This document shows positions 5,202 to 30,930 of a DNA stretch of 32,000 nt, piece by piece; position 1 is the stretch's first letter; every line of letters starts with the position of its first letter. The stretch is from Desulfocapsa sulfexigens DSM 10523 (GTDB lineage: Bacteria > Desulfobacterota > Desulfobulbia > Desulfobulbales > Desulfocapsaceae). Below the pieces are notes generated by a model, which was not told the origin of the DNA, searched no databases, and was given only the letters and a program-made list of their open reading frames with translations. A program made the position numbers and the translations under genes. The DNA lies in the NCBI RefSeq assembly GCF_000341395.1, contig NC_020304.1, positions 150,001 through 182,000 of the forward strand, written 5' to 3'.

Positions 5202-6308
5202 ATGAATGCCACAAACATGCGTTCCAAGCCCAAGTTAATTGGGGACCTACTCGACATCATACACAATGCGGTCATTGTCATTAACTCTCAAAACAGAATC
5301 GTTTATGCAAACAGTCGTACTGCTGTGATGTTCAGGACATCGGTTGCCGAACTCCAGGATAATGACATCTTCCACCTCTTCATGCCGGATGATACCGAAA
5401 TAATGGTAAGCAATATCCTCCATATTACGCGAAATGAGCGTGAATTCGAGGGTGAAGCAATGCTGAAGCGCATGGACGGCAGTAGTTTTATGGGACTTAT
5501 CTCCGGGACCTCGTTCCAATGGGATGAAAATCAGGACGGAATAGCCTTCTCAATCCATGACATTACTGATATGAAAGCCATTGAGCGCTCTCTGAGACAT
5601 TCAGAGCGAATGGCCTTCCTTGGTAACCTGATAGATGACATCAGCCATCAGATCCGTAACCCTATCATGGTTATCGGAGGCTTTGCCAAACGCCTTGATG
5701 CACTAAATAATTCACCAAAGGAAACCAAAGCCATAATCAGTGAATCCAGACGCCTTGAGGACCTTCTTGATACTCTTAACAACTTTATGCATCTGCCAAG
5801 CCCGGACACAAAACGTGTCCCCATGGGTGATCTTATACACATTGCAGAAACATTCCTGCGCGACACCGTAGAGGCCTGCAGCTGTAACTGGTTCAGTGAG
5901 TACGCTGACAACATAGGTGAAGAGGAACTGCTGCTCGACCTAAGTCTCATCACCAAAGCCCTGGAAGCTGTCATACTAAACGGTTGTGAATCCTACGATT
6001 GCAGCACAGCCGCGAACAGGGATATTATTTTCAAAATCCATCACTCCAATAATCCCACCCACCCCTATGATATTGAAATCACAGACCGTGGTGCCGGGAT
6101 ATCCAGCACCGTTTTTCCGCATATTTTTGACCATTTTTATTCAAACAAAACCAAACATATTGGAATGGGACTGACCTTCGCCCAGAGAATTGTCGAGGAA
6201 CAGCGAGGCACACTGAGCATAACTTCCAAGGTCAGCAAAGGCAGCACCGTCAGCTTCCATTTGGTAAAAGAGAGACGACGCCCCATCCGTACCACAAAGT
6301 TTCACTAA
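5202..6308 (+). CDS. PAS-domain sensor histidine kinase (cytoplasmic, no TM segment seen)
   Basis: N-terminal PAS-like region (NAVIVINSQNRIVYAN...), H-box DDISHQIRNP, and ATPase G-boxes DRGAGIS and GMGLTFAQRIV. It is convergent with the LpxL-like gene, with 17 nt between the stops. Confidence 0.9.
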   Translation: MNATNMRSKPKLIGDLLDIIHNAVIVINSQNRIVYANSRTAVMFRTSVAELQDNDIFHLFMPDDTEIMVSNILHITRNEREFEGEAMLKRMDGSSFMGLISGTSFQWDENQDGIAFSIHDITDMKAIERSLRHSERMAFLGNLIDDISHQIRNPIMVIGGFAKRLDALNNSPKETKAIISESRRLEDLLDTLNNFMHLPSPDTKRVPMGDLIHIAETFLRDTVEACSCNWFSEYADNIGEEELLLDLSLITKALEAVILNGCESYDCSTAANRDIIFKIHHSNNPTHPYDIEITDRGAGISSTVFPHIFDHFYSNKTKHIGMGLTFAQRIVEEQRGTLSITSKVSKGSTVSFHLVKERRRPIRTTKFH

Positions 6309-6325
6309 GCATTGAACCACAGACC

Positions 6326-7195
6326 CTACAGGATAAAACGATCAAAGTGATACCACTCCAGGGGGTGAGCACGAAGTTGCTCTTCAAGTAAATCAGCGTA
6401 CTGCTGTGCAGCCTTCTGGATAGTTCTTTTCCGTTCCGATCTCTGCTCACAATGAATATAGAGAGGATCGGCAAGACTGAACTGATAGCTGTTTTTTCCG
6501 GTACGAAAACTGTAAAAGCAAAAGATAGGGGCACCGGATACCATGGCAAAAATGTAGGGAGCTTCAGGAACTCTGGCCCTGCCGCCGAGGAAATCAACCT
6601 CCATACTGCGCTGATCTCCGCGCCAGACGATATCCCCGGTCATGGAGATAAGACCGCCATCCTGCAGCAAACGAATCCCCTCAACGGCATCAAAGGGGGA
6701 GCCGCCGTCCCGTGGAGCCCCGATTATCCGCACTCCGGAATCCTGGAGCTGCTCCTTCTGGAGTCCTTCCACTCCTTCCTTTTCCTTCACTCCCATATAG
6801 AGAAGAAGCTTCAACGTCTCTTCCTGCTGCTGCAGGAGCTGGGCTGCTATCTCCCAGTTCCCAAGGTGAGACATCAGCAGAATGGCACCTTTTTCACCTA
6901 CCACGGCCTCCAGCTTTTCCCAGCCATCCGATGTAAAGGTCGTTTTCTGACCATGGTTTGCCAGGAAACGATCATAATGAATGGTAGTGAAATTCTGATA
7001 CTGGCGAAAGGTGCAGAGGCTGTGAAAGAAACCACTTTTCCGGGGATAGAGAAGACCATAGAACCTACGGCTCTCCTTTGCGTTTTCTGAGAAAAGAAAA
7101 TACCCCGCAGCGATGGATCTGGATACGACGACAAAGAGCCAGGAACCACAGATTCTGGTCATTGTCTCAAGAAATCCGTACCAGAAACCCTTCAT
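6326..7195 (-). CDS. Lipid A-type late acyltransferase family protein (LpxL/HtrB/MsbB-like)
   Basis: The SHLGNWE (HX4E) signature of the lauroyl/myristoyl acyltransferase family, with an N-terminal hydrophobic helix. The ATG at 7195 forms an ATGA overlap with the GT2 stop. Confidence 0.8.
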   Translation of the reverse strand: MKGFWYGFLETMTRICGSWLFVVVSRSIAAGYFLFSENAKESRRFYGLLYPRKSGFFHSLCTFRQYQNFTTIHYDRFLANHGQKTTFTSDGWEKLEAVVGEKGAILLMSHLGNWEIAAQLLQQQEETLKLLLYMGVKEKEGVEGLQKEQLQDSGVRIIGAPRDGGSPFDAVEGIRLLQDGGLISMTGDIVWRGDQRSMEVDFLGGRARVPEAPYIFAMVSGAPIFCFYSFRTGKNSYQFSLADPLYIHCEQRSERKRTIQKAAQQYADLLEEQLRAHPLEWYHFDRFIL

Positions 7196-7908
7196 TTTTG
7201 TTTCCAGGAGGCAGAAAAAATCCGTTTACAGATCAACCTGCTAAATGTGGCACTGTTCCGTAAAAAATCTTTCCAGGGGTGAAAATGGGAAATGCGCTCC
7301 TTCCCTTTCTGGTAAATAACCTGGACCGGAGTTTCAACAACCGGGATCCCCATGCGATGAGCAGTGACCAGTACTTCAACCTCAAACTGGAAACGTCTGG
7401 CACGGACATCCAGTTCAAGAATTTCAGGGAGCGGGTAGAGCCTGAATCCTGACTGGGAGTCACTTATTCGCGGCCCACCGGACAACCACACCCAGAAGTT
7501 TGAAAACCCCCTCCCGAACCGAGATGTCCACGGAACATTTATCCCATCCATTCCCTGCCTCGATCCGACCACAATGGGACGGTCTTCCCCCTTTACCACA
7601 GCAAGGAGATTTTCTATATCTTCAGCTTTGTGCTGTCCGTCTGCGTCGAGTGTGACCGCCCAGTCAAAAGAGTCCTTAGCCGAGAAAAAGCCTGTTCGTA
7701 ATGCCGCGCCCTTTCCCATGTTCCGCGGGTGGGTCAGCACCGTAATCCCCTTTATGGAAGAGAGCGTTTCAGCAGTCTGATCCGTTGATCCATCATCTAC
7801 AACAATGACCGGGTAGCCAAGAGCCGCAGTCTCCCGCACCACATCACTGATACGCGTCCCGTGGTTATAGGCCGGAATGACGATGACAACTGCATCACGA
7901 TTCAACAC
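7192..7908 (-). CDS. Family 2 glycosyltransferase (DPM1/ArnC-like)
   Basis: VVIVIPAYNHG, VIVVDDGSTDQT and LDADGQH (DxD) motifs. I start it at the GTG at 7908 (AGAGAGG SD 6 nt upstream), or the TTG at 7905. The longer track ORF (to 8052) would overlap the DegV-fusion gene by 150 nt. Confidence 0.85.
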   Translation of the reverse strand: MLNRDAVVIVIPAYNHGTRISDVVRETAALGYPVIVVDDGSTDQTAETLSSIKGITVLTHPRNMGKGAALRTGFFSAKDSFDWAVTLDADGQHKAEDIENLLAVVKGEDRPIVVGSRQGMDGINVPWTSRFGRGFSNFWVWLSGGPRISDSQSGFRLYPLPEILELDVRARRFQFEVEVLVTAHRMGIPVVETPVQVIYQKGKERISHFHPWKDFLRNSATFSRLICKRIFSASWKQK

Positions 7909-9638
7909 CCGGCACCTCTCTTTGTTGCAAAGGCGATGCTCCAGGTGCCAGGACCCATATGAACGCCTGAAGTGAGAGATAGGGGAACGAGCAGAATCTC
8001 CGCCTTTGGGACCTCCTCCCGTATCTGCGGCTCCACGACACTTTCCAGCCATTCCCTGTTATCCGTATACTGCAGCAGCACCAGCAGAGCAGATTCTTTA
8101 TGATTCGATGCGCCAAGCCGCTTCTTTGCAAAATCCAACTGGGCCTCAGCATTTCGAACCACACCAACCTTGGCAACCCCTTCAAAACCAGGAGTGATGA
8201 CAGGTTTCATCTGCAGAAGATCCCCAAAAAATCCCTTTGCTCTGGAAACACGCCCACCGGACACCAGATATTTCAGTTCATGGATAAAAACGTACTCTTC
8301 CGCTTTCCTGGTGAGTTTTTCTGCATAGTCCACCACTGCATCGACACCAGCACCTCCCTCTGCAAAGCGGGCCGTCAGAAGAGCGATTACGGCTAATCGT
8401 CCAGAAGCGGCACCGCTATCAAGAACCATAAACCGATCATCTGAATCGTTATTTTTCTTCCACTCTCTGGCAGTGACAAAATTTCCGGTGAAGGCAGAAC
8501 CGGTACTGAGATAGAGCACTTTTTCATACTGCTGGATCGCTGCCCGATAGTGAAGATGCCGTTCATGGCTTGATGCCTGGGCAGTGCTGACACGTGCTCC
8601 CCCCCTCATCAGAGTATAGAGTTGTTCAGGGAAGAAAAGGCTCTCCGGCAGGGCCTGATCTCCGGCAACTATATAACTGTCGAGAAGGATAATTCCGTGA
8701 CCACGGGCAAGTGTCAAAGGAATGGAGCCTGCTGCATCGCTCATAATCCTGATACGGTTTGCAACAAAGGATTTCTGCCTACCCGCCGTAATCATAGGGT
8801 CCATGGCCTCATCCGACCAGTTCACAAGATCTCCCAGCAGGGAGAGATTACCGCGTAATGTCTCCGGATCCCGGGTGTGGATATGCAGTTTCACTCCGGC
8901 GCCATCCTGGACAACCACGGCACTGTTTCCCAGATTTGCTATCTTTTCTGTAAGATCATCCCCTGTTCCGCTGGTTGCAAGTAATGCCTCAACGCAATAC
9001 TCACCGCTTGCCTGGGGATAATAAGAAGCGTCGATGGAAAGGGTATCACCAAAGAGTTCAACCACCGGGCTTAATTCTGTTTTCTGTCCGCTCAATTCCT
9101 GAAAAAATCCATCAAAAAAGAGAAACATCCCCAAAGCCCCGGAATCAACAACTCCCGCTTCGGAAAGCTCCGCCAGTTGCTCTCTTGTACCCAACACCGT
9201 ACCTTGCAGCTGTGTTCTGATTTTCAACCAGTCACAATCAGTTGGGTTTTCCTCATCGAGCAACAGACAGAGGCTGTCAAAAACAGCAAGCATGGTGCCG
9301 GGTCTGGGATCCGCTATGGCCTGCCAGGCCTTCTCCCTGCCTCTTTTTGCCTGCTGGACCAACCCGGCACCATTGGGATTGAGAAATTCACAAAAGAATG
9401 CCACTGCAATATTACCCGAGTTACCACGGCCACTGGAGGCAAGACGAGCAACAGCAGCTGCCATATCTGTAGCACATTCCCGCAGAGGAGAAAGACTGAG
9501 ACGCAGATTTGCCCCGGTATCACCGTCTGCCACGGGAAAGACATTAATACGGTCAAGAAGCTCGGCCCATACGGCCAGATTTTCATATCCGGCTATGGCG
9601 GCTGCAACACTGTTAGAGGCAAATATAGAATCTTTCAT
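7902..9638 (-). CDS. DhaL/Dak2 (FakA N-terminal-like) domain fused to a DegV (FakB-like) fatty-acid-binding domain
   Basis: The N-terminus has INVFPVADGDTGANL, the Dak2/DhaL nucleotide-binding signature seen at FakA/YloV N-termini. The C-terminal roughly 285 aa begin IRIMSDAAGSIPLTLARGHGIILLDSYIVAGDQ, which matches the DegV pattern. It is a single uninterrupted 578-aa ORF. Confidence 0.8.
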   Translation of the reverse strand: MKDSIFASNSVAAAIAGYENLAVWAELLDRINVFPVADGDTGANLRLSLSPLRECATDMAAAVARLASSGRGNSGNIAVAFFCEFLNPNGAGLVQQAKRGREKAWQAIADPRPGTMLAVFDSLCLLLDEENPTDCDWLKIRTQLQGTVLGTREQLAELSEAGVVDSGALGMFLFFDGFFQELSGQKTELSPVVELFGDTLSIDASYYPQASGEYCVEALLATSGTGDDLTEKIANLGNSAVVVQDGAGVKLHIHTRDPETLRGNLSLLGDLVNWSDEAMDPMITAGRQKSFVANRIRIMSDAAGSIPLTLARGHGIILLDSYIVAGDQALPESLFFPEQLYTLMRGGARVSTAQASSHERHLHYRAAIQQYEKVLYLSTGSAFTGNFVTAREWKKNNDSDDRFMVLDSGAASGRLAVIALLTARFAEGGAGVDAVVDYAEKLTRKAEEYVFIHELKYLVSGGRVSRAKGFFGDLLQMKPVITPGFEGVAKVGVVRNAEAQLDFAKKRLGASNHKESALLVLLQYTDNREWLESVVEPQIREEVPKAEILLVPLSLTSGVHMGPGTWSIAFATKRGAGC

Positions 9639-9871
9639 TCATCGCGTAGGTTTACTGTAGCTGGGTCACATTCTAATAGCTGATATTGGAGTGCAACACC
9701 TTATCAGAGAAGGTGACAAAGATGCAATCACAACCTGCGGATATGCCCGACACCGAGATCCCACTCTCCTTCCCCAAAAAGGTAATCCACGGTTCCAGGA
9801 CGCAGAGCGTTAGTTAACAGGCAACAGGATTTAAGAAAGGAGGAAACACAAGGGATTCTGGAATTCTGACA

Positions 9872-11242
9872 CTACAGAGATGTGAAAAGTTTACAGATTG
9901 CCTCCCTGTCATATTTACCGTTTGGCATAACAGGAATTGCAGAGACAACCCTGATACGTTTTGGCATGGCGGCGGGTTCCAGACCACCGGTCAGGACTTT
10001 TTTCAGATTATCGAGGTCAAGCCCTTCACCACGAACAAGCGCTGCAATCAGGTTTCCCCGCCCCCCTTTATCAGCCAGGGAAACGACCACACATTCCTGT
10101 ACAGCGGCTTGACTTTGTATAAAATCACGAACCTCGTCAATATCTACCCGGACACCACCTACCTTGGTTATAGCGTCCGCTCTGCCATGCAAAGAGAAGC
10201 CGGCTGCTCCCTCCTGCTGTACCCGATCTCCAGAAAGAAAAAAGCCATCTCCATTTACTGGTAGATCAGGAGAGAGAAAAGGGGACTGAACATAGAGGCG
10301 CTCTTCCGCTATCCGCCAGATGACCGGCTCAAGCGGAGTAAAAAATTTCTGACCAACGGACCTGTCACGACTGGCAAGTCCTCCTGTTTCCGTGGAGCCA
10401 TAGACTTCCACCACTCCGATATCATTGGATGCTGAAAACTCGAGGCTGTCTGTTTCCTCAAGCATTCCGGCAGAAGAAAAGGCCACTCTGAGAGATGTTC
10501 CAACACTCCTTCCCCTTAAAACACGGTAGTGGGCAGGAACACTGACCAGAACGGTTGCCGAGTTCTGCTCCACAGCTTCAGTAATTTCCGCGGGGAAAGA
10601 GGGCGTTTCAGCAAGAACGGCAGCGGAAGAAACAAGAGGGATTACAATGGAAAACAAAAGACCGTAAATATGATAGGGGCTGACAGTTGACAGGATAATA
10701 TCCTGATTAGTAATCTGGTATCTGGAGGCCATAAACCAGGCTTCACCAAAGATATTGCCTGCTGTTTTTGACCAGATTTTCGGGCTTCCGGTGGAACCAC
10801 CCGTAAATATCCGGAGGAGCTCTGCATCTTCTGAAATGTTTTTAACAGGAAGTGAAACAGTGCCTCCCTTTCTTTCGGAGGAAATACACTGTATATCAGG
10901 TAAAAACTCCCGTTCCACATCGACTACCGCGCTGGTAAAGCCGGTAACTTGACGCATCTGTTCCAGAGCACTTTCTGAAAAACTATGGGGCAGAACCAGT
11001 ATTTTTCCGCTTGCCATTGCTGCAAGGAGGGCAGCGGCAATCACAGATCTTTCTTCTGCAGCAAGGCAGATGGGGACCTCACTTCCCATCTCAACAAAGG
11101 CAGCGTACAAACGGCCAGCCATGGTATAAACATCTTCCCGACTGTCTTTTTGGTACAAAAAAGGCTGCTGCGGATCAACGGGAGCCTGTAACAGTTTTTC
11201 CAGCAAGCCTTCAATGTCAGCCCCGCTATACAGGCTCTTCAT
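9872..11242 (-). CDS. Adenylate-forming enzyme (acyl/aryl-CoA or acyl-ACP ligase, ANL superfamily)
   Basis: TGGSTGSPK (A3), YGSTETGG (A5), GRADAITKVGGVRV (A8) and PNGKYDR (A10) motifs. I prefer the ATG at 11242, 1 nt after the upstream stop. The track ORF extends to 11308 inside the upstream gene. Confidence 0.85.
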   Translation of the reverse strand: MKSLYSGADIEGLLEKLLQAPVDPQQPFLYQKDSREDVYTMAGRLYAAFVEMGSEVPICLAAEERSVIAAALLAAMASGKILVLPHSFSESALEQMRQVTGFTSAVVDVEREFLPDIQCISSERKGGTVSLPVKNISEDAELLRIFTGGSTGSPKIWSKTAGNIFGEAWFMASRYQITNQDIILSTVSPYHIYGLLFSIVIPLVSSAAVLAETPSFPAEITEAVEQNSATVLVSVPAHYRVLRGRSVGTSLRVAFSSAGMLEETDSLEFSASNDIGVVEVYGSTETGGLASRDRSVGQKFFTPLEPVIWRIAEERLYVQSPFLSPDLPVNGDGFFLSGDRVQQEGAAGFSLHGRADAITKVGGVRVDIDEVRDFIQSQAAVQECVVVSLADKGGRGNLIAALVRGEGLDLDNLKKVLTGGLEPAAMPKRIRVVSAIPVMPNGKYDREAICKLFTSL

Positions 11243-11243
11243 A

Positions 11244-12506
11244 TCAGGTGAGATCCCGTCCAAAGGCCTGTTCCGCCATCTCCCTGTTGCGAGGCTGGAA
11301 CGTTCCATCTTCCATTTCCTTACTCACAACCTGTTTAAAGAGCTTGAACATCTTCAGTTCCTGCGGTTCGTCCTGGTAAAATGTATTCCAGGCCAGATCA
11401 AGCAGATCCTGCAGTTTCCCAGGGCTCATCTGTTTTGGCTGATAGACGACCTTATCTGCAGAAAAGTCGTTCCAGTCTCTGGAAAGAATACGCCCCTGCT
11501 GCTCAAGTTCCTTGTATGCCTTAGTATGAGGGAAGGGGGTCAACACCGTAAATTCGGCAAGATCAAGCTCTATATCGAGAAGAAAATCTATTAATTCCTT
11601 GATATAGTCCTCGCTGTGGCTGTCGAGCCCAAGAAGGATAGTCCCTTCAACGCCTATACCGTGATCATGGTAGCGCTTAATCCGTTCACGAATATAATCA
11701 GAGGTATCAAATACCGCCTGATACACATACCAGGCTCCGGCCTGGGCAGCCAGATCAAGAATCTCCGGTTTATCTTCAATGGGGTGGGAACACCACTTCT
11801 TCTTCAGAGGGATCATTTCCCGAAACAGATCTTTCTCCCACTGGCTGTTCTGGGCCAGCGAGTTATCCACAACAAACATACGATTGTTATCAATCCCGGC
11901 CATCTCAGCAACGGCCTGATCAATGGGCCGGGGCCTGAAATCCCGGCCGCCAAGATAGGAAACGGCGCAGGGGTAGCAGTTAAAACGACAACCTCTGGAA
12001 GCATGCACCAGATCAACCATCTGCACGCCTTTATAGTTATAGAGTTTTCTATTGAGGATATCTCGACGGGCAGGGCCCACAAGACCAATATCAGGACGAT
12101 CATTCATATAATCGTAACAGGGTTTCAGAGTACCATTCCTGAAATCAGCCATGACCTGTTCCATCCGACTTTCAGCCTCACCCAGGAATACAGAATCGGC
12201 GTGTTTCATGGTCTCTTCAGCATGAAGCATGGTGGCAATACCGCCAAAAATCACCTTGATACCTTTTTTACGAAAGGTATCACCAATCTCCCAGCCCCGC
12301 TTCACCTGGACGGTGAGCATCATGGATATTCCAACCATATCGACCTCTTCGTCAAAATCGATCTCCTCCAGATTTTCGTCAACAAAATCTATATCGACAT
12401 AGTCCGGTAAGGTGGCGGCAAAAACAACGGGGCCGTGTGGTGGAAGGTGAAATTCCGTCTGTCTGGAAAGTTTGGCCCATTTAGGATAAATCAGTTTGAA
12501 TTTCAT
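11244..12506 (-). CDS. Cobalamin-binding-domain (class B) radical SAM protein
   Basis: N-terminal B12-type domain (VDMVGISMM...KVIFGGIATM) followed by ASRGCRFNCYPC (CxxxCxxC). Confidence 0.9.
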   Translation of the reverse strand: MKFKLIYPKWAKLSRQTEFHLPPHGPVVFAATLPDYVDIDFVDENLEEIDFDEEVDMVGISMMLTVQVKRGWEIGDTFRKKGIKVIFGGIATMLHAEETMKHADSVFLGEAESRMEQVMADFRNGTLKPCYDYMNDRPDIGLVGPARRDILNRKLYNYKGVQMVDLVHASRGCRFNCYPCAVSYLGGRDFRPRPIDQAVAEMAGIDNNRMFVVDNSLAQNSQWEKDLFREMIPLKKKWCSHPIEDKPEILDLAAQAGAWYVYQAVFDTSDYIRERIKRYHDHGIGVEGTILLGLDSHSEDYIKELIDFLLDIELDLAEFTVLTPFPHTKAYKELEQQGRILSRDWNDFSADKVVYQPKQMSPGKLQDLLDLAWNTFYQDEPQELKMFKLFKQVVSKEMEDGTFQPRNREMAEQAFGRDLT

Positions 12507-21590: not shown

Positions 21591-23726
21591 TTGAGTAGTA
21601 AAAAAAAAACAGTTTATATTGCAGGCATTGGTATCATCAGTCCCCTTGGTTGCGGAGCTGATGATACGGAACAGTCTCTTCTAAAGAACATTTCTGCGAT
21701 TGCACCCCTGAGTGCAGACATCTTTTCCATTCGCACCCCTCCCCCTCTTCTGGTGGGGCAGGTCACAAATCTTACTGAATCGCCCCTTCCCCGAACACAT
21801 CGTTTAACAATTGCCGCTGCACAACAGGCAATGAAAGGACAGTCGCAGCCACCTGATGCTGTAATACTTGGAACAACCACGGGAGGAATTCTCACTACAG
21901 AAAACCTGCTTATTGAGAGTGAAAAGGATCCTCTGAAATACAGACACCACGGACTCACCACGGTGGCTGAAGAACTCGCAGATGCCCTCCACTGCACGGG
22001 TCCCGCACTCACTGTCTCCACTGCCTGTTCCTCGGGGAGCGTTGCCATCTCCATGGCTTGTAAAATGCTGCAGTCTGGTGAGGCGGAATGGGTGCTGGCA
22101 GGAGGAGCTGATTCCCTTTGCAGGCTGACCTACTTTGGATTTCATTCTCTTCAGCTGGTGGACCCCGAGGGCAGCAGACCACTGGATAAAGACAGAAAAG
22201 GAATGTCCGTTGCCGAGGGAGCGGGACTGCTCCTGCTCACCACCGTAAAGCCCGAGCAACCCATGGGCCAGATTCTTGGCTGTGGACTGACCTGTGACGC
22301 CCACCACCCTGCGGCGCCTCATCCAGAGGGAAAAGGCGCCTTCCAGGCCATACGCAATGCTATCAACTCTGCGGGAATTAATGCCCGCGCAATCGATTAC
22401 ATCAACCTTCACGGAACAGGTACTCCGGATAACGACTTGGCAGAATCGAAGGCAATACGGGCAGTCTTTGCCAATCCCCCGCCCCTCTCATCTATCAAAG
22501 GAGCGACGGGGCACAGTCTGGCCGCATCCGGTGCTATAGAAGCTGTTATTGCCGCAATCTGTATACAGGAGGGATTTCTGCCGGGTAACACCGGACACAG
22601 AACCCCGGACCCGGAATTGCATATAAGGCCCATTATGTCGCCTGTAAGTCAACCAGTCTCAATAATCCTCTCCAACTCCTTTGGATTTGGGGGAAATAAT
22701 GCGTGCCTCCTTTTCTCAAAGAATGGAACAGTCACCGCACCCTCCATTGCTTCTGAACACGCCCCCTTAACCATAGTCGGAAAGGCTTGTATCACAGGAG
22801 TTGGCCATACCCGGAGCAGTCTGGAAACATTCTCCAAACTGGCAGTTATTGGTGGCACTCTTGACAGTAAAATCATCTCAGAGAACCTTCCAGCACGAAA
22901 GGTACGACGCCTGAAACGCTTTTCACGAATTGCCCTCGCCCTGGCCGCTGCTGCCCTTGAGGATTCCGGTCTCAAGGAATCACCCCAGTCCGTTTTTATG
23001 GGAAGTGGCTGGGGCGCACTTTCCGAGACCTATGATTTTATAGATAAACTGCAAAGCAGTGACGAAAAGTTCCCCAGCCCCATAGACTTTGTAGGTTCCG
23101 TTCACAACAGTGCTGCCGGACAGATTGCCATCATGCATGGGGCAAGGGGTGCGAATATCACCAGTAGTGGTGGTGACCATTCTTTTGAGCAGGCACTGCT
23201 TGCCGCAGACTCCTTTCTTGACGAAGATTCACCGTCCGCTTTCGTACTTGCTGTCGATGAGTTCCACAAACAGTTCTCACCGCTGTTTGATCCATCGATC
23301 ACAACTGATACGTCCCCTGCTGATGGGGGGGGAGGGTTTTACCTCCTCAGACAGGCCGTCCCCGGAAGGGTCTCCGTTCAACTCAAGTGTTACCAGAAAC
23401 AGACAGAAGATATACTGGAGTCGCTTGTTGCAGGTCTTGGTGGCACCGAATCACTGCAAAACGACTGCGGAATGATACTTGCCGGAATCCCCGCAGCCGT
23501 CGCCCACCAGGGAGAAGAACAGCTGCATCAGTTTATGGAGAAAACCGGGCTTGACATTCCGGTTATTCATTACAGGATGTTTACCGGAGAATTTGCCTCA
23601 GCTTCCAGTGTTGCTGCGGTTATAGCCGCACAACTTCTGGAAGACGGTGTTGTCGATTCCAGCAAGAAAATCCTGGTACTGGGTTTTGGGAAATACGTCA
23701 CTGCCATGGAATTCGCCATTCAATGA
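21591..23726 (+). CDS. Didomain protein: canonical beta-ketoacyl synthase fused to a Cys-less KS-like (chain-length-factor-like) domain
   Basis: Residues about 1-375 carry STACSSGS (Cys), CDAHHPAAP (His), NLHGTGTPDND (His), GHSLAASG and SFGFGGNNAC. Residues about 390-711 have KS-like blocks (GSGWGALSETYDF, SVHNSAAGQIAIMHGARG) but ITSSGGDHS where TACSSG would lie. TTG start at 21591. Confidence 0.85.
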   Translation: MSSKKKTVYIAGIGIISPLGCGADDTEQSLLKNISAIAPLSADIFSIRTPPPLLVGQVTNLTESPLPRTHRLTIAAAQQAMKGQSQPPDAVILGTTTGGILTTENLLIESEKDPLKYRHHGLTTVAEELADALHCTGPALTVSTACSSGSVAISMACKMLQSGEAEWVLAGGADSLCRLTYFGFHSLQLVDPEGSRPLDKDRKGMSVAEGAGLLLLTTVKPEQPMGQILGCGLTCDAHHPAAPHPEGKGAFQAIRNAINSAGINARAIDYINLHGTGTPDNDLAESKAIRAVFANPPPLSSIKGATGHSLAASGAIEAVIAAICIQEGFLPGNTGHRTPDPELHIRPIMSPVSQPVSIILSNSFGFGGNNACLLFSKNGTVTAPSIASEHAPLTIVGKACITGVGHTRSSLETFSKLAVIGGTLDSKIISENLPARKVRRLKRFSRIALALAAAALEDSGLKESPQSVFMGSGWGALSETYDFIDKLQSSDEKFPSPIDFVGSVHNSAAGQIAIMHGARGANITSSGGDHSFEQALLAADSFLDEDSPSAFVLAVDEFHKQFSPLFDPSITTDTSPADGGGGFYLLRQAVPGRVSVQLKCYQKQTEDILESLVAGLGGTESLQNDCGMILAGIPAAVAHQGEEQLHQFMEKTGLDIPVIHYRMFTGEFASASSVAAVIAAQLLEDGVVDSSKKILVLGFGKYVTAMEFAIQ

Positions 23727-30447: not shown

Positions 30448-30930
30448 ATGCGACCAAAGCCATTTATCCCCGAGCTTCTCCCTCAGCACCCCAATCATGT
30501 AAAAGATAGGAACAGTGGTCTGATCTGGCACAAAAGCGAAATGCGTACCCTCTATGTGGATACTGACAGGTCCCAGGTTGTTTACCATGCCAACTATCTG
30601 CGATATTTTGAATTTGGCCGGGCAGAACTTATGCGGGGGGCCAACTATCCCTACAAGAAGATCGAAGAAAGTGGCTACGTCTATCCCATCATCAAGACTG
30701 AACTCAACTATTTCACCCCGCTCTTCTATGACGATCTCATGTATATCCACACCCGGCCTTCCAGCATCGAACTGGTTAAACTGCAGTTTGACTATCTGAT
30801 CACCCGGGCGTCAGACGGTGAGATTATCTGTACCGGTTTCACCAAGCATTGCGCAATCAACAGTGACGGAATTCCGGTCAAGATCGATGAGAAAACAATC
30901 AAACTCTGGGAAAGTTTTCCAACAGAATAA
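30448..30930 (+). CDS. 4HBT/YbgC-type hotdog acyl thioesterase
   Basis: YVDTDRSQVVYHANYLRYFEFGRAELMR, the 4HBT-class Asp and HxN..Y..YFE pattern. The true start may be the internal ATG at 30541. Confidence 0.8.
   Translation: MRPKPFIPELLPQHPNHVKDRNSGLIWHKSEMRTLYVDTDRSQVVYHANYLRYFEFGRAELMRGANYPYKKIEESGYVYPIIKTELNYFTPLFYDDLMYIHTRPSSIELVKLQFDYLITRASDGEIICTGFTKHCAINSDGIPVKIDEKTIKLWESFPTE

Follow-up and report, generated by a model that had tools for sequence, protein, structure and literature searches.

We analyzed a 32,000-nt stretch of the Desulfocapsa sulfexigens DSM 10523 genome (NC_020304.1, positions 150,001 to 182,000; the whole stretch is called the window below) and found that window positions 7902-9638 encode, on the minus strand, a single 578-aa chain (P0001) in which a Dak2/FakA-type kinase domain, a FakA-like middle domain and a DegV/FakB-type domain follow each other. 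This fused architecture is common and, by profile and residue comparison, the clade of this protein, which lies inside a lipid cluster, appears to be a variant of the known fatty-acid kinase. The reading that we favour, with a probability of about 0.62, is that the fusion is a self-contained fatty-acid kinase supplying acyl-phosphate for the membrane-lipid assembly of the cluster. We infer the kinase activity, PlsY as the consumer of the product and the role in the cluster from homology and gene order. The fatty-acid kinase FakAB has been treated as a two-protein scavenging strategy of Gram-positive bacteria (review, PMC10146087), and FakA and FakB of Firmicutes (S. aureus and S. suis; PDB 7RM7, 8VIP, 6W6B, 7W7H, 5WOO and 4X9X) were the system used for comparison. 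Our literature search found no characterization of a single-chain Fak; the sole mention was one sentence on Dak2-DegV fusions that cites Erni et al. 2006 (bioRxiv 10.1101/2021.02.16.431466).

Domain architecture and conserved residues of the fusion

The reading frame and its parts, all on the minus strand, were assigned as follows.
7902..9638, minus: whole reading frame, Dak2 - FakA_M - DegV protein P0001 (Pfam, NCBIfam, AlphaFold2)
9105..9536, minus: Dak2/DhaL-type nucleotide-binding domain, residues 35-178 (Pfam, FakA_N alignment to 8vip/7rm7, Foldseek)
8802..9002, minus: FakA-like middle domain, residues 213-279 (Pfam, alignment)
8754..8801, minus: short variable linker from the middle domain to the DegV domain, residues 280-295 (AlphaFold2 model)
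7923..8753, minus: predicted full DegV/FakB-type fatty-acid-binding domain, residues 296-572 (Pfam, NCBIfam, Foldseek)

Translation of the frame gave one intact product with zero internal stops. The Dak2 domain, set in a helical N-terminal domain of residues ~1-190, matched its Pfam profile with 39.1 bits (cut-off 27), the FakA-like_M profile (PF21645) matched with 42.2 bits (cut-off 24.9), and the DegV profile (PF02645) with 134 bits (cut-off 27) over profile positions 2-279 of 280; the NCBIfam DegV model TIGR00762 scored 134.9 against a cut-off of 99.7. These calls bear out the original prediction, made from the sequence alone, that Dak2/FakA-type and DegV-type domains share one 578-aa polypeptide, and the two motifs on which it had relied, INVFPVADGDTGANL and IRIMSDAAGSIPL, were located at residues 31-45 and from residue 296, respectively. 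It had also held that both the middle and the C-terminal domain of FakA were missing. The second half of that claim stands, as the FakA_C profile (PF13684) matched neither the fusion protein nor anything else in the whole genome, but the middle domain is present, with the score given above and with C215, H252 and H254.

Equivalog models for the two separate proteins fell below threshold. YloV (TIGR03599) scored 131.7 against a cut-off of 396.1 and FakA_VfrB (NF038248) 74.7 against 975, both matching residues 13-281 alone, while the FakB1 equivalog NF038249 scored 43.5 against 350, the DegV domain being fused to a kinase rather than a ~280-aa stand-alone protein. Lacking FakA_C and scoring below threshold, the fusion is by these profiles neither a member of the FakA equivalog nor a stand-alone FakB. 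Its place is in an as yet uncharacterised fused architecture, three domains in one frame of about 560-610 aa, which databases carry as 'DegV family protein'; both halves were named in one JGI record among the homologues.

Residue conservation was assessed on an alignment of 92 full-length fusions (23-66% identity). The putative ATP/Mg ligands N32, D38, D40, N73 and D165 were invariant (92/92) and T41 was kept in 91 of the 92. In the alignment to 8vip/7rm7, N32, D38, D40, T41, N73 and D165 correspond to Asn32, Asp38, Asp40, Thr41, Asn82 and Asp185 of S. aureus FakA_N, so that the Mg/ATP ligands are identical to those of FakA and the first four share even their numbering; Asn32, Asp38, Asp40, Asn82 and Asp185 are the ligands of ADP-(Mg)2 in S. 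aureus FakA_N (PMC9136124). The middle domain carries the Cys-His-His set of FakA, with C215, H252 and H254 invariant in 92/92 and aligned to C240/H282/H284 of S. aureus and to the zinc ligands C244/H289/H291 of S. suis. Mutation of Cys240/His282/His284 lowered the activity of S. aureus FakA by ~100-fold (PMC9136124), and the equivalent residues of S. suis FakA bind zinc (PMC10848957).

The DegV domain resembles FakB in its fold and in a Thr / Ser(Thr) / Arg / His carboxylate site. R463 and H560 were invariant in 92/92, T352 was found in 91/92, and position 384 was Thr or Ser in 91/92. Motif alignments equate T352, T384, R463 and H560 with T61, S93, R170 and H264 of S. suis FakB2, the mapping of Ser93 to position 384 resting on motif and spacing, not on structure superposition; Thr61, Ser93, Arg170 and His264 form the carboxylate-binding network of that protein (PMC10848957). 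All 28 distant fusions had Ser at position 384, whereas 61 of the 64 closer fusions had Thr there, the hydroxyl thus being retained. Mutating these catalytic and carboxylate-site residues cripples FakA or FakB (PMC9136124; PMC10848957). Assignment to a FakA/FakB-type module agrees with this conservation, since the experimentally important residues are kept throughout the 92 fusions, with position 384 as Thr here.

The residues by which FakB docks to FakA_C were also traced. Its Arg and Leu (R202 and L181) fall at residues 495 and 474-475 of the fusion, in a loop where the alignment is uncertain, and are mostly kept in the clade. The Arg position is R/K in 49 of 55 clade members despite the lack of FakA_C, and is often hydrophobic in distant fusions. 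The same FakB Arg wedge also contacts membranes in S. aureus (PMC9136124), and by analogy membrane binding may be the role of the wedge retained in the clade.

An AlphaFold2 model computed on the same alignment was confident for the single chain (mean pLDDT 92.5, pTM 0.92). In Foldseek comparisons its C-terminal half matched whole FakB/DegV crystal structures with TMt 0.82-0.89 and a root-mean-square deviation of 2.3-3.0 A over ~280 columns, and its N-terminal domain matched FakA_N structures with TMt 0.72-0.74. Three inserts form the lipid tunnel of FakB and are absent from FakA_C (PMC9136124); since the C-terminal half superposes on whole FakB/DegV proteins, these tunnel inserts appear to be included. 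FakA_C itself is a tunnel-less FakB-like docking domain with an acidic groove (E538/E554 in S. suis; PMC9136124; PMC10848957). The fusion thus differs from the known pair in being one chain instead of two proteins, with the docking domain of FakA predicted to be replaced by the lipid-binding DegV domain itself. It differs from FakA also in its linker, in which two short helices are predicted and no equivalent of the long dimerization helix alpha14.

When the N-terminal plus middle part and the DegV part were folded as separate chains, they docked with an ipSAE interface score of 0.56 (best control 0.00), the runs sharing at least 63% of contacts and the partner pLDDT being at least 84. This docking used our own alignment and its partners were halves of one chain. 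Of 80 solved complexes 58 reached the pass mark, as did 2 of 110 mismatched pairs, and scores passing at 0.60 or below came from seven of those solved complexes and both mismatches. At this level, the model hints at a specific interface between the two parts.

Spread of the fusion and its linkage to plsY

The 120 best database homologues were 51-98% identical, 553-598 aa long and of the same Pfam domains, the exceptions being two fragments of ~432 aa. HMMER over 1.84 billion representatives returned 239 proteins at E <= 1e-30. The best 150 of these were full-length fusions or shorter proteins covering part of the query, in identity tiers of 37-66%, 32-36% and 23-31%, and all three domains were present by Pfam in 10 of 10 distant fusions that were spot-checked. 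Among the matches listed, full-length fusions came from Gemmatimonadota, Bacteroidota, Spirochaetota, Acidobacteriota and Xanthomonadales (including Pseudoxanthomonas sp. Root630), as well as Fidelibacterota, Thermotogota, Bipolaricaulota, Actinomycetota and Bacillota. The scan behind this list of phyla used one genome per species, its taxon lists are samples, and anammox genomes lie outside it. Closer to the source organism, 21 of the 24 genomes sampled from its genus carried a full-length match free of interruptions. Of 301 genomes drawn evenly from the phylum, 27 had an orthologue, from about a dozen families, and just two others had a Fak-like piece.

In four related genomes the fusion was found as two adjacent collinear pieces, which could reflect frameshifts, misassembly or gene decay.
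G326, C12:29962-31639: split fusion copy
G266, C47:35160-36780: split fusion copy
G133, C1:269844-271589: split fusion copy
G002, C217:12842-14559: split fusion copy

A quick IQ-TREE phylogeny of 46 fusions, built with a fast model and returned with long-branch warnings, separated the 12 rows of the cluster-associated clade from the rest by a branch with SH-aLRT 100. By this tree and the alignments, the window protein belongs to a divergent, well-supported clade. Fusions of other phyla, exemplified by those of Fictibacillus iocasae (WP_379750544) and Pseudoxanthomonas sp. Root630 and annotated 'DegV family protein', share its domain order, length (about 570-610 aa) and invariant residues. They are 22-29% identical to P0001, have stronger Pfam matches and the canonical S-S-x-L-S-G-T motif, and stand beside plsY or DUF1295 genes, whereas P0001 stands in a cluster of ketosynthase (KS) and radical SAM genes.

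Gene context outside the clade points to PlsY. Among the matches listed, plsY, located by tblastn with PlsY of D. sulfexigens as query, lay on the same strand 17-312 nt from the fusion in 9 of ~38 loci outside the cluster clade, in taxa including Xanthomonadales, Bacteroidota, Spirochaetota and Bipolaricaulota; the architecture was Pfam-verified in seven of the nine. Distant phyla share this adjacency, and its occurrences are spread across the family tree. In L020 (34% identity, GCA_050304755.1; L020:8055-11821), the sister of the clade in the tree, plsY runs 4 nt into the fusion start, and in one cluster locus (L029) plsY lies 7.7 kb upstream, inside the cluster. In the loci compared, plsX was never beside a fusion and was seen nearby at canonical FakA loci alone. 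The strongest evidence at hand that the family would make acyl-phosphate for PlsY is this plsY linkage, and by homology the expected product is the same as that of FakA and FakB, acyl-phosphate for PlsY/PlsX.

Other neighbours were recorded at individual loci. At L020, the opposite strand carries a LolA-like and a Cob_adeno_trans gene immediately upstream, so that a LolA-like neighbour exists outside the KS/radical SAM cluster too. At the Fictibacillus iocasae locus (L022:8001-10585), a gene for a DUF1295/PEMT-type membrane protein follows the fusion with a 1-nt overlap, in agreement with a reported association of DegV with DUF1295 close to heliorhodopsin genes (bioRxiv 10.1101/2021.02.16.431466). 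As to how widespread the fusion is and whether it always neighbours KS and radical SAM genes, it spans many phyla, and the fusions of other phyla stand by plsY or DUF1295 genes rather than in such a cluster.

The D. sulfexigens genome (4.02 Mb, 100% complete) was searched with profiles. The fusion was its only Dak2, FakA_M and DegV gene, and no second Fak system was found with the Dak2, DegV, FakA_M and FakA_C profiles. PlsY and PlsX, the users of acyl-phosphate, are both encoded elsewhere in the genome.

The lipid cluster around the fusion

The neighbours on which the argument draws are listed below.
7192..7908, minus: GT2 glycosyltransferase, ApeJ-like, 238 aa (profile match; synteny)
6326..7195, minus: Lip_A_acyltrans, LpxL/ApeD-like lysophospholipid acyltransferase, overlapping the GT2 stop by 4 nt
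9872..11308, minus: AMP-binding (ANL) ligase, upstream of the fusion (profile match)
11244..12506, minus: B12-binding radical SAM enzyme (profile match)
30448..30930, plus: 4HBT-type thioesterase, possible source of free acid (profile match)
21591-23726, plus: single-chain protein of ketosynthase and chain length factor (KS-CLF), 711 aa, cluster marker
5202-6308, plus: soluble PAS histidine kinase, splitting the minus-strand block

The fusion accordingly sits between the ANL ligase and the GT2 and LpxL-type genes, as had been proposed. Its TGA stop also overlaps the GT2 start as described, by 7 nt (GTGTTGA), provided that GTG at 7908 is taken as that start. This start is the most likely one, and the 238 aa that it gives are consistent with the 236-241 aa of orthologous GT2s. 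The order fusion-GT2 is repeated in six orthologous loci (L017, L019, L021, L023, L027 and L029), and the overlap indicates probable translational coupling. On the other side, the ANL ligase is separated from the fusion by a non-coding gap of 233 nt (9639-9871), in which no sigma-70-like promoter, intrinsic terminator or Rfam family was found. In L017, L018 and L021 the ligase and fusion genes share 1-4 nt, and the ligase lies away from the fusion in L023, L025 and L027. In L019 the gap measures ~875 nt and contains a called reverse reading frame of 209 aa.

Two side observations concern the annotation of this block. The longest reading frames called for the B12-radical SAM enzyme and the ANL ligase overlap by 65 nt (11244-11308); the ligase start probably lies further downstream, as its orthologues are 453-464 aa long against 478 aa here. 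The PAS histidine kinase sits between the LpxL-like gene and the genes for an acyl carrier protein (ACP), a KS and a PlsC-like enzyme. In L019 and L021 the ACP gene directly follows the LpxL-like gene, so the histidine kinase looks like a lineage-specific insertion.

The cluster in the window contains three ACPs, five KS-type genes, ApeI-like and PS-DH dehydratases, the 4HBT thioesterase and several B12/SPASM radical SAM enzymes, with a LolA-like gene in the operon and a CrtI-like oxidase, found in orthologous loci as well, just past the window edge. By this gene content it is an aryl-polyene-like, 'ladderane-type' cluster of a type II fatty-acid or polyketide synthase. With the lipid-anchor module of aryl-polyene (APE) clusters it shares Lip_A_acyltrans, GT2, 4HBT thioesterase, AMP-binding and LolA genes (counterparts of ApeD, ApeJ, ApeK, ApeH and ApeL), and also the ApeI-like dehydratase in the window and an ApeP-like one in orthologous loci. 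It differs from APE clusters in its several B12/SPASM radical SAM enzymes, and it resembles the 'ladderane-type' fatty-acid synthesis clusters of Kuenenia and Desulfotalea (PMC2649909). Such clusters are syntenic between those two organisms (Rattray et al. 2009, PMC2649909). That paper mentions no DegV/Dak gene for them, and the ape genes as described include no Fak-like gene (PMC8253772; bioRxiv 10.1101/2020.12.19.423268).

The order B12-radical SAM / (ANL) / fusion / GT2 / LpxL-like recurs in loci whose fusion is 37-66% identical, and the B12-radical SAM enzyme is the most conserved neighbour (64-94% identity). These loci usually add an ApeP-like dehydratase, an SDR gene, a LolA-like gene, ACP-KS-PlsC genes and more radical SAM genes. 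They belong to Desulforhopalus, other Desulfobulbales, Desulfococcus (Desulfobacterales), Syntrophaceae (Syntrophales) and a metagenome-assembled genome of the Polyangiaceae; one clade member (L026) had none of the cluster neighbours on its 8.9-kb contig. Among 41 relatives, counts that are descriptive because kin are not independent, the fusion and KS-CLF were both present in 22 and both absent in 16 (three of the same genus), and the three discordant genomes were metagenome-assembled and 82-88% complete. KS-CLF was full-length in 23 of the 41, and 22 of those carry the fusion. The fusion clade lies within the APE/'ladderane-type' cluster and is inherited together with it, and its description as a lipid-cluster gene holds beyond this one genome.

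Proposed role and competing explanations

Under the favoured reading, the C-terminal DegV/FakB domain would bind a fatty acid in its tunnel, where T352, T384, R463 and H560 would fix the carboxylate, while the N-terminal Dak2 domain would bind ATP-Mg2 through N32, D38, D40, T41, N73 and D165. The Dak2 domain and the Cys-His-His middle domain would then transfer the gamma-phosphate to the carboxylate to give acyl-phosphate, the docking domain FakA_C being dispensable because the lipid carrier is tethered in the same chain. Housekeeping PlsY would convert the acyl-phosphate to 1-acyl-glycerol-3-phosphate, which the co-translated ApeJ-like GT2 and ApeD-like acyltransferase and the PlsC-like enzyme of the cluster would carry to the final membrane lipid. 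In the APE system, ApeD places the conjugated acyl chain at sn-2 of a lyso-phospholipid that already bears myristoyl or palmitoyl, and ApeJ (GT2) then adds a sugar (bioRxiv 10.1101/2020.12.19.423268; PMC8253772). It is this chemistry, together with the translational coupling to the ApeJ-like and ApeD-like genes, that leads us to read the fusion as the acyl-phosphate supplier for a 1-acyl-glycerol-3-phosphate acceptor. The role would also set it apart from FakA and FakB, as it belongs to a biosynthetic cluster of a diderm sulfate-reducer lineage and not to a scavenging system.

Which acid is activated can be stated less firmly. The exotic product of the cluster is a possible substrate, at somewhat under even odds. 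The ordinary chain serving as the sn-1 anchor is a rather weaker candidate; by the APE analogy an ordinary saturated anchor chain of the lyso-phospholipid could equally be the acid (bioRxiv 10.1101/2020.12.19.423268). The suggestion of two parallel reactivation routes, adenylation by the ANL ligase and phosphorylation by the fusion, is doubtful. ApeH, the homologue of the ligase, loads the starter onto ACP (PMC8253772), and the ligase is not adjacent to the fusion in three of the loci; by this analogy the ANL ligase more probably loads an ACP starter than provides a second route.

Several observations weigh against the favoured reading. The fourth zinc ligand of S. suis FakA, H226, aligns to Y206 and has no conserved counterpart in the fusions. 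The whole chain aligns collinearly with crystal FakA yet superposes poorly on it (TM 0.29 in Foldseek), so the predicted domain arrangement differs and is more compact than the elongated crystal form. The Dak2 and DegV matches (39 and 134 bits) are lower than in ten more distant fusions scanned (79-141 and 145-277 bits), and the clade is divergent and sits on a long branch that carries one of the warnings. Near the carboxylate site the clade motif G-S-x-Y/F-T-G-N replaces S-S-x-L-S-G-T, and residues 556-557 are polar T-S in the clade and hydrophobic elsewhere. By alignment the head-group environment is altered in the clade, and since the change is clade-wide the ligand may not be an ordinary fatty acid. 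Finally, plsY of this genome lies at C1:949509-950045, ~790 kb from the fusion, and the PlsY link here rests on relatives.

An unlikely alternative, though the strongest of those considered, puts the kinase at the start of the pathway: an ordinary or scavenged acid would be phosphorylated, passed by PlsX to acyl-ACP, and then extended and modified by the ketosynthases and radical SAM enzymes. The genome encodes PlsX, Firmicutes are known to pass acyl groups from Fak through PlsX to ACP (PMC9136124; PMC10848957), and the neighbours include the B12-radical SAM enzyme and the ANL ligase, whose APE homologue loads the starter (PMC8253772). However, it is the GT2 and LpxL-like assembly genes downstream, joined by a stop/start overlap, that are the closest and best-conserved partners of the fusion, the family elsewhere adjoins plsY and never plsX, and a loading route is already offered by the ANL ligase.

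Slightly less probable again is a different acceptor, in which the DegV pocket would hold a modified lipid (a hydroxy- or glyco-lipid or a monoacylglycerol) and Dak2 would phosphorylate a hydroxyl in the manner of DhaL/DhaK. The clade-specific changes around the head-group site (Thr for Ser at 384, Asn for Thr at 386, Tyr or Phe for Leu at 383, polar 556-557) would suit it, as would the GT2 translationally coupled downstream, and dihydroxyacetone kinase too pairs a Dak2 nucleotide domain with an EDD-fold partner that holds the substrate (PMC9136124). Unlike that enzyme, the fusion has no DhaK (Dak1) domain, and its middle domain and DegV lipid tunnel are Fak-specific. The carboxylate-binding Arg and His are invariant and the Thr nearly so (91/92), and a hydroxyl is kept at 384. 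Moreover, the intermediate tier to which the plsY-adjacent L020 belongs has Thr at 384 in 7/9 and Tyr at 383 in 9/9, Asn 386 not being shared.

It is improbable that the protein is a non-catalytic carrier or sensor, with DegV shuttling or buffering a hydrophobic product, for example to the LolA-like protein, and Dak2 as a nucleotide switch without turnover. The LolA-like gene in the operon and the low Dak2 score are in its favour, and roles other than in Fak are reported for some stand-alone DegV proteins (PMC10138225). Retention of the Mg/ATP ligands and the Cys-His-His set over 23-66% identity is hard to explain without catalysis, and the family is linked to plsY. The last explanation, that a frameshift in sequencing or a wrongly called frame joined a FakA-like gene to a DegV gene, has the four split copies in relatives on its side but is out, as the frame is open here, >100 independent orthologues in different assemblies have equal length and domain order, and the single-chain model is confident; the original prediction's own worry that these might be two genes is thereby settled.

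In conclusion, a tethered, compactly predicted single chain may be a simpler object for solving how the FakB carboxylate meets the ATP site of FakA, a geometry debated between two structural papers (PMC9136124; PMC10848957), and a lipid co-purifying with the DegV domain could give a direct handle on the product of the Desulfotalea/Kuenenia-type cluster (PMC2649909). A more tentative view, which we regard as possible but on balance unlikely, is that the clade is a kinase dedicated to specialised lipids of diderm anaerobes, in which a radical-SAM-modified polyene or 'ladderane-type' acid freed by the thioesterase would be phosphorylated in cis and passed by PlsY to sn-1 of a cluster-specific glycolipid. 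If this were true, the single-chain design would be the older one and FakA_C of Firmicutes a degenerate copy of its DegV domain. For the family as a whole, the finding means that a one-chain form of Fak is widespread in diderm phyla, is linked to plsY and has been recruited into a biosynthetic cluster in one clade.

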